A stretch of DNA of 64,000 nucleotides from Octopus sinensis. Taxonomy: Eukaryota. The notes under the pieces are model-generated. The model ran no database searches and was not told the DNA's origin. It saw only the letters and a program-made list of their open reading frames with translations. A program made the position numbers and the translations under genes. Location: assembly GCF_006345805.1 (NCBI RefSeq), contig NC_042998.1:156178001-156242000 (forward strand), read 5' to 3'. Position 1 is the first letter of the stretch. The number at the start of each line of letters is the position of its first letter. Positions 3,633-54,716 of this stretch are shown here, in pieces.

Positions 3633-3667
3633 ATATCATGAATAGCGATAGCGAAACCGGTCGATAT
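3633..3667 (+). ncRNA. Minimal type I hammerhead ribozyme, A3-U8 core variant
   Basis: ATATC-ATGAATA-GC GATA GC-GAAA-CCGG-TC-GATAT: 5-bp stem I, 2-bp stem II, palindromic ACCGGT stem III, GUC cleavage triplet. Confidence 0.75.
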
Positions 3668-3937
3668 ATTAAAAATTATATTAAAACTATGTAAGTGTGG
3701 GTATTTTCTTTTTTTTAATTTCTTATATACATTACAATGAGTTGTAATGTGGGGATAATCGAAATTCTCCTTTCTGTTACTACTACTACTACTACTAACT
3801 ACTACTATATATATATATATGTATGTATATATATATATATATATATAATATAATATATATATATATATATATATATATATATATTATATAATAGAAATAT
3901 GTTGCAAAAAGAAAATAGAAACTGTTAGAGATTCGAA

Positions 3938-3972
3938 AGCATACCGGTTTCGTAAAATTGCTAATCATTGCT
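3938..3972 (-). ncRNA. Type I hammerhead ribozyme, A3-U8 core variant
   Basis: Minus strand AGCA-ATGATTA-GCAATTTTAC-GAAA-CCGG-TA-TGCT: 4-bp stem I, ACCGGT stem III, GUA triplet, imperfect stem II. Confidence 0.65.
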
Positions 3973-5470
3973 GTGAATGCACACCAATTATATATATATA
4001 TATATATATATATATATATATATATATATATATATATATATACACAAATAAGAAAATGGAGAAACAAATTCACTTCGATCATCAAATTACGGATATTACA
4101 ATTTCACATTATTTATTAATTATACAAATTGGAACATGAAAATCGAACAAAACAATATACATCAATATGTAAAAAAAATATAAATGTAAAAATAATACAA
4201 ATAAACTGCTCCTTACCGCTGTTTCAGCCTATGGTCAAAAGTCAATTCAACTTAAATTGCCTATAGATGCCATTATAATATATTCCTAGGCATTAATAAT
4301 TATATTTGTATGTTTAAAATCACTTCTTAAGTATAAGTACATATACGACCGTAAGTGTAGGTGTTTGTTGCTTAAATGCCTATCCAAGTTTTAACATATA
4401 AATGAATGTGCTTTTATTCAACATTTTATTCAATTTGGTGACCCCATATTGTTTTGAAACAGGCCTAGCGGATGCGTTTAAGTGAATTAGCCAATTGGAA
4501 ATAGATCAAAAATTTATGTGACCGCTCCCTAAACCATAATATATTTTAAATATTTAATATGCATAGGTTAAATAGCCAATAATTTAAATGACTGCTCCCT
4601 AATCCCCAATATAATTTTAAATATCTTTATATATTTAATATGCATACTTTAACGCAAACCTCGAGCTAAATTAAACTTGGACATGGAGTTTAAGTTACTA
4701 CTATGTTTTTTTTTTAAATTAAATTTATTTGATTATGTGGATGTATTAAATTTAATATCCATATAACAAGAATGTAAACATTGTGAAATCTAATATGCAT
4801 ATAACGGGGACTTATATTTTGTGGAACTAACCTTGCCTGGACTTGTAATCCGGACTGAATGTTTTGGATGCTAGAATTTAACTTATTCGTGTTAAGCGGA
4901 TGCGTTAAATATTATTTAGATTATGTTTGTATAATATATTCATACGCAAATATCTTGTTTGTGCATATATAATATATATATATATTATATATATATATAT
5001 TATATGTATGTGTGTGTGTGTGTGTGTGTGTTGTGTGTGTGTGTGGTGTGTGTGTGTGTGTGTGTGTGTGTGTGTGTGTGTGTGTGAACATTTATACTTG
5101 GTACTTTGCTTCATGAATTTTTGTTACTTTGTTTAGTATTACCGTTAAAACAGCATTACTGTTGGTATTGTTAAAAGTGGTAGTATATTACGTTATAATC
5201 CATTTACTGAACTATACGAAGCATAATAATCCAATGTAATGTGATATACTGTTCAATGTTGTTCTTTATGTTTTTTGCACATGTGATTAATATGTACGAT
5301 TTGCCTATGTATGTATATTTGTATATTTTATATGTATATATGTGTTTATGTATATATATATGTATTTTGAATATTTGTCTTACTATTTATTTTCTTGTTT
5401 TTATTGGATAGTAAGTGAAGCATGTTTTTTATATATCAATATTATTATTATACTTTTCAAGTTATGTATA

Positions 5471-5602
5471 TCCACTGACGAGGACTTTGGTTATTTAAAC
5501 ATACAAATAAAATATTTAATGCCTAGGACTATATTACAATGGCATCTATAGGCAATTTAAGTTGAATTGACTTTTGACTATAAGCCGAAACAGCTGTAAG
5601 GA
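5471..5602 (+). ncRNA. Type I hammerhead ribozyme with extended loop II
   Basis: TCCA-CTGACGA-GGACTT...AAGCC-GAAA-CAGCTG-TA-AGGA; palindromic ACAGCTGT stem III. Confidence 0.65.
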
Positions 5603-51200: not shown

Positions 51201-51404
51201 TTTAATTATTATTATTATTATTACTATTATTATTTTTTTGAACAATTTAAAATTGTGAAAGGCAATCATTCTCAATAATGTGAATGTTGATTTTCCTAAT
51301 TCAGTTTTTATACAATTAAAATATGCTGCAGCTTCTGGGCATGTAAATTTTCAACATTTGTTTATGTTAAAATTTCAATAGGAAAAAAAAACCCTCTGTG
51401 AATA

Positions 51405-51980
51405 ATTCTTTCTTCGAAAGGCACAAGGCTTAAAATTTGGGACCGGGGACTAGTCGATTACATTGACCCCAGTGTTTCCCTGGTACTTAATTCATCGACC
51501 CCCTCAGCATAATTTGAACTCAGAATGTAAAGACGGGCGAAATATCGCTAAGCATTTTGCCCGGCGCTTTAATAATAATAATAATCCTTTCTACTATTGG
51601 CACAAGGTCAGAAATTTTAGGGGAGGAAACTAGTCGATTACATTGACCCAGTGTTTCACTGGTACTTAATTTATCGACCCCGAAAGGGTGAAAGGCAAAG
51701 TCGACCTCAGCGGAATTTGTACTCAGAACGTAGCGACGGACAAAATACCTATTTCTTTACTACCCACAAGGGGCTAAACACAGAGAGGACAAACAAGGAC
51801 ATACAAACGGATTAAGTCGATTACATCGACCCTAGTGCGTAACTGGTACTTAATTTATCGACCTCGAAAGGATGAAAGGCAAAGTCGACCTCGGCGGAAT
51901 TTGAACTCAGAACGTAACGGCAGACGAAATACGGCTACGCATTTCGCCCGGCGTGCTAACGCTTCTGCCAGCTCGCCGAC
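51405..51980 (-). mobile_element. Cluster of three nested or tandem family B SINEs
   Basis: GTCGATTACAT.GACC...GGTACTTAATT.ATCGACC occurs three times; complete head at 51940-51980. Confidence 0.88.
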
Positions 51981-52549
51981 GGGCAAAATACCACAGATTT
52001 GCTTGTCAGTTGTTTGACCGTAACCAGTTGAGTATGTCCCTTAGTGGCTGGCGATATGTGCATCTCTGATCATGAGCAGAAGTAGTGGGGGAGCATCGTA
52101 GCCATGTGTTGAGAGGAATTCTTTGGGGTTTGGATAATTCACCTCTGGAAACGTGGTTGTCTCGTTCGACATAATTAAACAACCTTTATTCAGGGACCTT
52201 TTGAGCGGGATGAGTTTCGTATATTTTACCCCAGTGTCACTTTGATGACATGCACTGCTCTCTCACTCAATAATGATTTCATTTATATGCCACCAGGAGG
52301 AAGAATGAGGGGGACGATAAAAAACAGACATAAAGTGTGGGGGTTTACATGTAATGAAATGATAAGATAAAATTTTTAAAAAAAATCTTTTAAGGAGTAA
52401 GTATATACAGTATACAAAGGAAGAGGAATGTGCATAATGTACAAAGTTTAAGAAAATTATTGGAATGGTTTTTAGAGATGTAGTCCTCCTGATACAGTAT
52501 GAACTCATGGGATAATCGATGAACCCCACTGTCCAAGATTTCCCTGAAC

Positions 52550-54716
52550 ACCAACGTTAGTTTTCTTGGAATTAGAAGTAGAGATTAATAGTTCTCATAC
52601 TTTTATTCCGTTTAAAGTCTACATAGGTGGCAGAGGGAATATTTGTTTAAAATGAGGATATTTTTCCGCAGCATGCTGGTAACTTTCATGTAACACCTTT
52701 GAAATGCCAGCGAAATTTCTGTGCCGGTTAATCACTAAAGGAATTCTATCACATATTTTACTTTGTTTGCTAAAATTATGTGTGAAAGTTTGACTTTCCT
52801 TGTTAATCTTAGCCATCGCGATTCATTGAAACCGCGTTTGACATAATGGTGTACAAAAGCATCTGCATGTTTCCAGTAACCCCTATATCAGTACAAATTC
52901 GTTTTATCCTCAAAAATTAGGATTTCGAATTTGACCGAATTATATAATGTGAATGATCGGAGCGGCGGTGGAGGTAAATGTAGGATGACGTCACTATTTT
53001 TTGCCTCAAGAAAACTTAACTTTTGTGTCCTAAGATTCAGCGTTAGTTTTTTAAAAACTCGACGTAAATTTTATGTTGAGCTTAAAGCCATAGTTTTTAG
53101 TATAAGTTACAGAAATGCAAGAAATCAATTAAACTATCCTGAGATCTGTCCCAGGCAAAAAAGACTTCATCAATGAACTGTAACCAGAATATTGGTTCAT
53201 GACCATGTAGGGATTTGAATGTCTTCAGTAACAGTATCTCGAATTTCATCATGAAGATATTAGCGAAATTAACTGCGATGGAAGTACTCATGTCGCAACT
53301 CCCCGTCTGGTGGTAAAAATTTTGTCCAAACATCGTTGTTACTTTGTAACACAAACCTCAATAGCCTACAGAGAAAATTAAATGGAATACTTTTGTTTGA
53401 TCGTTTTTCGAAGGCATTCATGCACGCTTCTACCCCTTCATCGTGGTCAATATTGAGATATAAGGAAGAAACATCCATTGTTACCAAAAAACAGTTTCCG
53501 ACATTGTTTCGGTGCTTAGAAAAGTTGTTGATTTTAGACACAAAATCAAAAGTATCTTGAATATGGGAACTTGATCTTTGCGACAGTGAGTAGAAGGCCA
53601 TGCAGCAACTCCGAAATTTTGGCTGTACAACATTCGTATCCGCTGAAAATTCGGCGCATTGGAAGAAATCTTTCCAACTTTTTGTGTATTTTGTGTCTAA
53701 AATTAAGAACTTTTCTAACCACCGAAGCAATGTCGAAAACTGATTTTAGACACAAAATACGCAAAATGTTCTAAAGATTTCTTCCAATCCACCAAGTTTT
53801 CAGCGGATATGAATGTTGTACAGCCAAAATTTCGGAGTGGCTGGATGGCTTTCTACTCCCTGGCATTTCAAATGTTACATGAAAGTTACCAGCATGTTGC
53901 AGAAAAATATCTTCGTTTCAAACAAATATTCCCTCAGCCACTTTAGACGGAATAAAAATATAAGAGAACTATTAACCTCTACTTCTGATTCCAAGAAAAC
54001 TAATATTGGAGTTTCTGTGCGCTGTACCTTGAAAAACAGCTGCTAGAGAGGTAAGCCCTGTTCATTGTGCAACAACATGAGTTAAGTCATTTCCACCAGG
54101 AATCATAACAGAAATTTTATGATTTATGCGGAAGGTGGGAATGCACCAAACACAATTTGATTTATGGTGGTTGTACAACAGAACAACTAAACAAAAGATT
54201 CAATGGGCACACATATGATGTCAGGCAAAATGACAGTAGTTCGACCGAACTTGCCGAACATTTTACATCAAACGACTACAATTTTGAAAAGAACTTGAAA
54301 GTGCAAATTCTCAGAAAATATTCTGAATCTTACTCTTTCAGTCCTGAAAATGCATTGAGGAGAAATAAGTTTGCGAGCTATTAACATCACGCCCTGAAGG
54401 AATGAACAAACTGACATGGGAATTTCATCATATTTACACAAAATTGTTTGATTAAATATTCTTTTTTCCTTTTTCTCTTTTTTCTTTATTTTTCTTTCTA
54501 CCAGTTGTAAAATTGAAAATCGAAAACTGATGATGTCATTCCATCAACGTGGGAATGCTGGTTTCCCTCGTTCAAACTTCTGAATTTAAATTTCTATAAT
54601 TTTGAATTTTTATGTATCACTTTTCATTTCGAACTCGACAAAGACAGGCAAGCTGTCGAAATATCGTCCAAACCAATAAAATATCTATTGCAATCACATT
54701 GCACTCTTCGTACTGT
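52550..54716. mobile_element. Older PLE with fold-back architecture (RT on minus 52550-53600; C-terminus and GIY-YIG on plus 53850-54450)
   Basis: FLVTMDVSSLYLNIDH, NFANIFMMKFE and WLQFIDEVF on minus. IYGGCTTEQLNKRFNGH...ELAEHF on plus. 52555-52710 mirrors 53862-54012. Confidence 0.85.
54631..54669 (+). ncRNA. Probable hammerhead, U3-A8/U4C variant, at the PLE 3' end
   Basis: GAAC-TCGACAA-A-GACAG GCAAG CTGTC-GAAA-TA-TC-GTCC; perfect 5-bp stem II, imperfect stem I. Confidence 0.55.

Follow-up and report, generated by a model that had tools for sequence, protein, structure and literature searches.

Hammerhead motifs in an Octopus sinensis locus

The DNA analyzed here (the window) is a stretch of 64,000 nucleotides (nt) from Octopus sinensis (assembly GCF_006345805.1, contig NC_042998.1, positions 156,178,001 to 156,242,000, forward strand), which is 36% G+C, microsatellite-rich, and largely made up of transposon remnants. 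Twelve sites in it had been called hammerhead ribozymes in a sequence-only reading, and each of the 12 coordinates was found to lie where a stem I arm ends in a motif resembling a type I hammerhead. Positions 3 and 8 of the core form a Watson–Crick pair at all 12, and several of the motifs can be tied to reading frames of Penelope-like retrotransposons (PLEs). The motifs and the one PLE insertion recognized as a unit are as follows.

3633..3667, plus strand: type I hammerhead with an A3-U8 core (AUGAAUA), a 2-bp stem II, and an ACCGGU stem III, at the 3′ end of a young PLE family; found with the descriptor
3938..3972, minus strand: type I hammerhead of a second A3-U8 family (core AUGAUUA), with a stem II mismatch; from a family alignment of 32 copies
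5471..5602, plus strand: C3-G8 hammerhead with a stem II region of ∼110 nt and a ACAGCUGU stem III, at the 3′ end of a likely Hydra-clade PLE
7328..7373, minus strand: canonical minimal C3-G8 hammerhead with an ACGU stem III; PLE-like frame at 7765-8400 (minus strand) upstream
10937..10994, minus strand: C3-G8 hammerhead with a near-palindromic 9-nt stem III insert, in a repeat family without a linked frame
11556..11641, plus strand: C3-G8 hammerhead in worn form, reading GAUA where GAAA is expected; it belongs to an inverted pair that extends over 11399-11623, and no frame was linked to it
18270..22654: one PLE insertion with an inverted duplicate and (TA)n flanks
18443..18480, minus strand: U3-A8 hammerhead (UUGAAAA) with an ACCGGU stem III, at the left end of the inverted PLE
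22473..22510, plus strand: U3-A8 hammerhead identical to that at 18443, at the right end of the same inverted PLE
27485..27530, minus strand: canonical minimal C3-G8 hammerhead of the 7328 family
32476..32510, plus strand: C3-G8 hammerhead with C4 (CCGACGA), in a family that mixes CUGA and CCGA, without a linked frame
45328..45431, minus strand: C3-G8 hammerhead with a long stem II, the copy carrying A9U; no frame found
54631..54669, plus strand: U3-C4-A8 hammerhead (UCGACAA) with an AUAU stem III, at the 3′ end of a PLE family with a C-terminal GIY-YIG endonuclease; from a 36-copy alignment

The type I strand order (stem I, core, stem II, GAAA, stem III, UH, stem I) was found at every site or in the majority sequence of its family (12 of 12), which confirms the call as hammerheads. 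When searched with a strict descriptor (type I hammerhead, positions 3, 7, and 8 free, position 4 either U or C), six sites proved intact with an exactly palindromic stem III, namely 3633, 7328, 18443, 22473, 27485, and 32476, and the 10939 site passes if its near-palindromic stem III insert is allowed. The remaining five are damaged copies whose family majorities are intact. At 5471 the first stem I pair is mismatched and at 3938 a pair of stem II, both of which are paired in the family; 11557 reads GAUA for the GAAA of its family, 45327 has a U at position 9 where the family majority is CUGAUGA, and 54631 carries a stem I mismatch. G5, A6, A9, GAAA, and UH are constant in the family majorities. 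The 5471 motif has, in addition, a partial inverted copy at 4162-4318.

Self-BLAST aligned 18270-20333 with 22654-20638 as an inverted match at 96% and placed 7328 and 27485 in one family at 88%. Since the motifs at 18443 and 22473 thus terminate a single inverted element, and those at 7328 and 27485 belong to the same family, the 12-site list of the sequence-only reading stands as a list of type I motifs or worn copies but amounts to 11 insertions from 10 families. Its 3-8 letters were likewise correct, and all three pair versions it named (C3-G8, U3-A8, and A3-U8) are present in the window; it had overlooked the C at position 4 of the 32476 and 54631 cores, the PLE reading-frame context, and a fourth pair, G3-C8, which lies outside the window. 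The literal consensus C3 U4 G5 A6 N7 G8 A9 is departed from at seven of the 12 sites, five differing at positions 3/8 (one of these also having C4), one by C4 alone, and one by A9U through decay. The prediction that a search restricted to CUGANGA would miss about half of the motifs accordingly fits the window (7/12) and is somewhat high for the genome sample described below, where 19 of 33 paired sites start with CUGANGA and 14 (∼40%, two of them doubtful) do not.

An Rfam scan of the window returned no hammerhead at the gathering score, only microsatellite-driven microRNA matches. The only three sub-threshold hammerhead matches were at 45326-45433 (Hammerhead_1, 22.4 bits, E-value 0.75, below the gathering score), at 18427-18491 (a weak HH9 match to the 18443 motif, 19.7 bits, E-value 3.8), and at 22462-22526. 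Window matches at 63027 (A3-A8, unpaired) and 26187 and the 11102 parse were treated as chance.

Excess of paired cores over chance

In the unshuffled window, the strict descriptor yielded the six intact sites, an alternative parse of 10939, and the unpaired 63027 match. In contrast, 200 local dinucleotide shuffles of the window gave a mean of 0.11 Watson–Crick hits and never more than one, so that the observed density, for which comparison with dinucleotide-shuffled sequence had been proposed, was not matched. The descriptor was also applied to a genome sample (1.2 Mb of a 2.72-Gb genome, taken as 120 stretches of 10 kb at even spacing along nine chromosome-scale contigs), where it identified 41 distinct sites: 21 C-G, 6 U-A, 3 G-C, and 3 A-U (two of the last, at locus L096, being doubtful), with 8 unpaired. 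Eight shuffles of the sample produced 0–3 paired sites as compared to 33 observed, and 2–7 unpaired sites as compared to 8. The whole excess therefore lies in paired cores. The window is approximately threefold denser than the sample (6 strict sites versus 1.8 expected per 64 kb), having been chosen after the fact. Extrapolation from the sample suggests ∼70,000 intact-looking motifs genome-wide, a rough figure, as sites cluster in repeats.

With a looser descriptor, 299 hits over sampled and purposely fetched DNA fell into 23 multi-locus clusters, every one of which has a Watson–Crick majority core (15 C-G, 4 U-A, 2 A-U, and 2 G-C); some clusters in this set were retrieved deliberately, a few represent a single genomic place more than once, and two (one G-C, one C-G) resemble chance parses. 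Genome-wide searches with exact patterns gave 1,054 matches for an A3-U8 core with an ACCGGU stem versus 2 in a reversed control, and 6,530 matches for any non-C3 core with that stem versus 19 in the control. Among the first 100 non-C3 matches listed, classified by eye, 93 carry a Watson–Crick 3-8 pair (75 U3-A8 and 18 A3-U8), the others being 5 U3-G8, 1 A3-A8, and 1 A3-G8 that is a second parse of a U3-G8 site; U3-U8 was found in none. A permutation test on 29 representatives (29 paired versus a maximum of 24 in 200,000 shuffles) is not relied on, the set having been hand-picked, with some rows taken because they were paired and doubtful clusters dropped. The proposed covariation of the 3-8 pair is thus borne out far above chance by the sample shuffles and by the clusters. 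BLAST found 19 hits of the 7328 family and 3 of the 10939 family in the 1.2-Mb sample, and the 3633 family has at least 43 copies at 96–100% identity among the matches listed, out of 1,289 candidates.

Penelope-like elements as carriers

PLE reading frames could be tied to six of the ten window families, the other four being tied by analogy only. The motif lies in a terminal repeat downstream of a frame with reverse transcriptase (RT) plus GIY-YIG endonuclease in the 3633, 3938, 18443/22473, 54631, and 7328/27485 families and in the G3-C8 family. GIY-YIG or RT sequence was present upstream in 10 of 33 loci of the 3633 cluster, a PLE protein upstream in 6 of 16 loci of the 3938 family, and an endonuclease frame upstream of the 54631 family at L178, L158, and L155. 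Within the inverted PLE at 18270-22654, RT pieces occupy 20122-20703 (minus strand; RVT_1, E-value 2.3e-4) and 21067-21753 holds a C-terminal GIY-YIG domain (plus strand; E-value 2.9e-4), both below the Pfam curated cut-off. The frame upstream of the 7328 motif is without a cysteine linker and without a Pfam hit; we take it to be Penelope/Poseidon-like.

The PLE proteins of both A3-U8 families are ∼50% identical to that of the window U3-A8 element, and the ACCGGU stem is common to all three. In endonuclease trees, the A3-U8 families, the window U3-A8 elements, and L130 form one clade (84/97; Shimodaira–Hasegawa-like approximate likelihood ratio test 99), within which the grouping of the two A3-U8 families has a support of 37, so that their single origin is neither shown nor rejected. 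Related proteins together with a common stem indicate that the exchange of the 3-8 pair is a true change within one lineage. It follows that 'unrelated families', as the sequence-only reading had it, is wrong for exactly the informative cases. The 54631 and G3-C8 families belong to separate PLE lineages with C-terminal endonucleases.

The 5471 family has more than 2 kb of non-coding sequence upstream of the hammerhead and joins a Hydra-type frame by way of L342, L363, and L366; on this indirect sequence link it is likely the 3′ end of a Hydra-clade PLE. An intact 960-codon element of this type at L367 lies between two long-stem-II hammerheads 5.6 kb apart and has the DKT motif and CxCX5C, which PMC8557442 gives as Hydra marks. 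Assignment of the long-stem-II families to Naiads, which are reported without hammerheads, was rejected because the RT linked to them is of Hydra type and is accompanied by a C-terminal endonuclease; the Naiad marks of an N-terminal GIY-YIG and a DKA motif were not found in the linked frames, where the endonuclease is C-terminal and L367 has DKT. Hydra-type PLEs, such as those at L366–L368, are abundant in this genome (7,296 candidates for one RT piece, of which 150 were scored), with open frames of up to 960–1,124 codons and long asparagine-rich inserts. Their hammerheads have 50–110 nt in the stem II region and are missed by a descriptor with a loop of 3–10 nt. L044:2848-5220 has six C3-G8 copies with a long stem II, spaced 535 nt apart; four share a strand and two lie on the opposite one.

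Several further features of the window were noted. Upstream of the 54631 hammerhead, the interval 52547-54013 is arranged in inverted fashion, with minus-strand RT pieces and a palindrome of 280 nt at 53584-53862. It probably represents the 5′ part, inverted, of the PLE terminating at that hammerhead. A broken mariner-type transposase lies at 12035-12997 (plus strand; HTH_48, E-value 9e-18), and broken frames resembling a long terminal repeat (LTR) retrotransposon, with an integrase core (rve, E-value 1.6e-7) and RT-like pieces, at 47660-50739 (minus strand). The interval 43137-43783 is a 650-nt inverted repeat whose arms have TTAGGG-like units around an AT-rich center, and 30280-30379 is an assembly gap of 100 N.

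The G3-C8 family and C4 cores

The fourth pair, G3-C8, belongs to a very young PLE family first met in the sample (L050 and L066). Dozens of its copies are 100% identical, often beside (TA)n, with a GIY-YIG frame upstream, and the copies stop at two fixed 3′ positions. At G3-C8 loci (L328:1485-1510; L301-L330), many short copies and inversion junctions start 16–24 nt before position 3, directly after a stretch resembling a 3′ splice site (a branch-point-like CTAAC, pyrimidines, and TAG). This start accounts for ∼11 insertions among 28 distinct contexts and for 5 of 16 hits in other loci. An intron of Drosophila virilis Penelope is described as ending at helix I (PMC4209133). Microhomology of AT with the (TA)n targets may contribute to the G3-C8 start points.

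At position 4, the 54631 family shows TTGA in 9 copies, TCGA in 5, TCAA in 4, and other forms in 4. As the CpG decay products of both strands are represented, C4 is probably ancestral in this family. The 32476 family has CTGA in 8 copies, CCGA in 3, CCAA in 1, and other forms in 2. In one long-stem-II family all four loci have C4 cores (CCGAAGA), as does part of a second (clusters L045:5843 and L116:3567), indicating that U4C recurs in several lineages.

Proposed selection for self-cleavage and its alternatives

Hammerheads at PLE ends, a dimer model of their cleavage, and the natural U3-A8 pair are established (PMC4209133; PMC3088659). Whether PLE hammerheads need to cut can be questioned, given that they are slow in the tube and that in vitro insertion of one element proceeds without them. 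Double changes, found repeatedly and in each case restoring the 3-8 pair, are genetic evidence that the active fold is selected, and the four-way exchange of the pair, read from sequence, makes it likely that the ability to self-cut is under selection. On this reading, the motifs are type I hammerheads placed in the 3′ terminal repeats of PLE families, and 3-8 pairing in every family would reflect selection on PLE master elements for a self-cutting ribozyme, probably acting as a dimer through its palindromic stem III. We consider this reading, with PLE terminal hammerheads and selection for cutting taken together as one proposition, to be probable.

The proposed mechanism is as follows. A short palindromic stem III could not close within one molecule; two copies would pair their palindromes and exchange stem I arms, such that both cores fold. 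A transcript with two terminal repeats would be cut after position 17, probably helped by the protein of the element, and the cut would trim element RNA out of read-through transcripts. Selection would act on few master elements, the scattered single copies being truncated by-products in decay; truncation affects the window copies, and several of them are broken. At 10 of the 12 window sites stem III is exactly palindromic, and at 10939 and 45327 nearly so. For the A3-U8 motif at 3633, the predicted minimum-energy fold of the dimer is the double hammerhead (−13.3 kcal/mol versus −2.6 for the monomer), which is also the predicted best two-molecule fold in 5 of 11 families (both A3-U8 families and three others). 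The earlier suggestion that a palindromic stem III fits a dimer is supported.

Several observations weigh against this reading. Six of the 11 folded families, including G3-C8 and the window U3-A8 family, are predicted to form a more stable alternative dimer. The 5′ ends of copies were not piled up at the cut site in seven families, with small counts (1–24 hits) and with the 227 hits of the 7328 family being mostly microsatellite matches. Copies extend ∼55–150 nt beyond the predicted cut site, from which it follows that the copied RNA was uncut or had been rejoined there. The RNA data speak for neither side: many contigs of the G3-C8 end came from four presumed RNA runs, no joint was seen in them, and contigs do not reveal RNA ends or strand. 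The copies are not independent, and the four pair types reduce to as few as three double changes. No reading frame was linked to the 10939, 11557, 32476, and 45327 families in the loci examined; the 45327 family has more than 1.1 kb of non-coding sequence upstream without a frame, the search having stopped at that stretch (31 matches listed). In reported work, hammerhead mutants of an anole PLE insert normally in vitro, and no RNA-seq reads are described there as ending at its cut site (PMC11167929); minimal PLE hammerheads are slow even as dimers, with dimer and trimer cleavage at low rates (PMC4209133); and C4 lowers activity in vitro (PMC3088659).

Some of these points would be accommodated if the hammerhead fold were kept as a structural signal, such as a protein-binding site or a cue for reverse transcription, with cutting slow or incidental. 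This is consistent with the normal insertion of the anole mutants, with cutting of that hammerhead only when protein is present (PMC11167929), and with the missing cut-site footprint in copy 5′ ends, as well as with a stem II of only 2 bp in one A3-U8 family and the likely ancestral C4 of the 54631 family. However, the same study ties the 3-8 contact to catalysis, in that C3G or G8C abolishes activity and both together restore it partly (PMC11167929), and a protein that reads letters is not expected to accept all four pairs while G5, A6, A9, GAAA, and UH stay constant. We therefore regard such a structural role as unlikely. A second alternative is that cutting serves short non-coding, retrozyme-like derivatives that ride on PLE proteins, rather than the coding element. 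Craig et al. raise the possibility of hammerheads parasitizing PLEs (PMC8557442), a 2026 preprint traces animal retrozymes to PLE ends (10.64898/2026.07.22.740005), and the four window families without a frame and the tandem copies at L044 would fit. In contrast, the A3-U8, U3-A8, G3-C8, and U3-C4-A8 cores all lie directly downstream of coding PLE frames, and no window site lies within a short head-to-tail tandem array, the layout of non-LTR retrozymes, which makes this explanation quite improbable. That the pattern consists of chance matches multiplied as repeats were copied, without any selection acting on the pair, is scarcely credible: although copying inflates counts and the descriptor returns ∼6 chance hits per 1.2 Mb and, within a repeat, one or more chance clusters, 12 of the 16 letter combinations are unpaired and yet none of the 23 clusters has an unpaired majority, the motifs occupy the PLE position expected of them and their stems I and II differ freely from family to family, and the shuffles, clusters, and genome-wide pattern controls already contradict it.

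Selection for a self-cutting ribozyme thus remains our preferred reading. A stronger proposition, that all four Watson–Crick 3-8 pairs occur in recently active PLE families of one genome, with A3-U8 and G3-C8 seen in nature for the first time and a U3-C4-A8 double variant besides, and that all would be catalytically active, is offered tentatively, as somewhat more likely to fail than to hold. If true, the families would form a natural mutate-and-rescue series demonstrating a requirement for self-cleavage in the PLE life cycle, which would stand against the in vitro data suggesting that cleavage is dispensable, and animal hammerhead censuses would be short by 40% or more. In this genome, ∼40% of intact-looking motifs escape descriptors that require CUGANGA and a short loop 2. 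The families also offer a natural set of sequences with which to test the pairs that the core accepts in the absence of the usual loop–loop contacts.

Comparison with known hammerheads

The motifs closely resemble the minimal hammerheads of metazoan PLEs (Cervera and De la Pena 2014, PMC4209133), with which they share the type I layout, palindromic 15.2-16.2 or loop 3, and a location at PLE ends. Also common to both are G10.1-C11.1, an additional base that may follow A9, pairs on opposite strands, single truncated copies by the thousand, and the U3-A8 variant (∼1,300 hits in Schistosoma mansoni). The 56 representatives in Fig. S3 of that study have only CUGA and three UUGA cores, in contrast to the A3-U8, G3-C8, and C4 forms found here. 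Its descriptor fixes cuganga, gaaannuh, and a loop 2 of 3–10 nt, and on that account fails to detect motifs of this genome that have an ACCGGU or ACAGCUGU stem or a long stem II. The small variants of Lunse, Weinberg and Breaker 2016 are similar in PLE association, short stem III, and dimer cleavage, as described in PMC6765202. Hydra-clade PLEs (PMC8557442) resemble L367, and the element likely to be the source of the 5471 family, in their C-terminal GIY-YIG, DKT, CxCX5C linker, and hammerheads; they are described as generally shorter than 3 kb with canonical hammerheads, unlike the repeats 5.6 kb apart at L367 and stem II regions of 50–110 nt.

Natural covariation from C3-G8 to U3-A8 was described by Perreault et al. 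2011 (PMC3088659), together with a natural viroid U4C variant that has lower in vitro activity and still supports infectivity. The text of that paper names no natural A3-U8 or G3-C8, on which its Fig. 5 and Dataset S1 may bear. No report of either natural pair was found in the literature searches made, the sole G3-C8 among the papers listed being engineered; because the collection of Lunse et al. 2016, the largest of variants, may already include them, the claim of novelty is provisional. The Poseidon PLE PAc of Anolis carolinensis (PMC11167929) likewise has a terminal-repeat hammerhead, and its copies pass the cut site and stop at two places (the 'tail'), as do those of the G3-C8 family. The feature is real and belongs to a known kind of element, with core variants that are provisionally new: G3-C8, in PAc an engineered mutant with partial rescue, is here the natural state of a recently multiplied family, and variants that are rare in PMC3088659 here characterize entire families whose copies number from hundreds to thousands.

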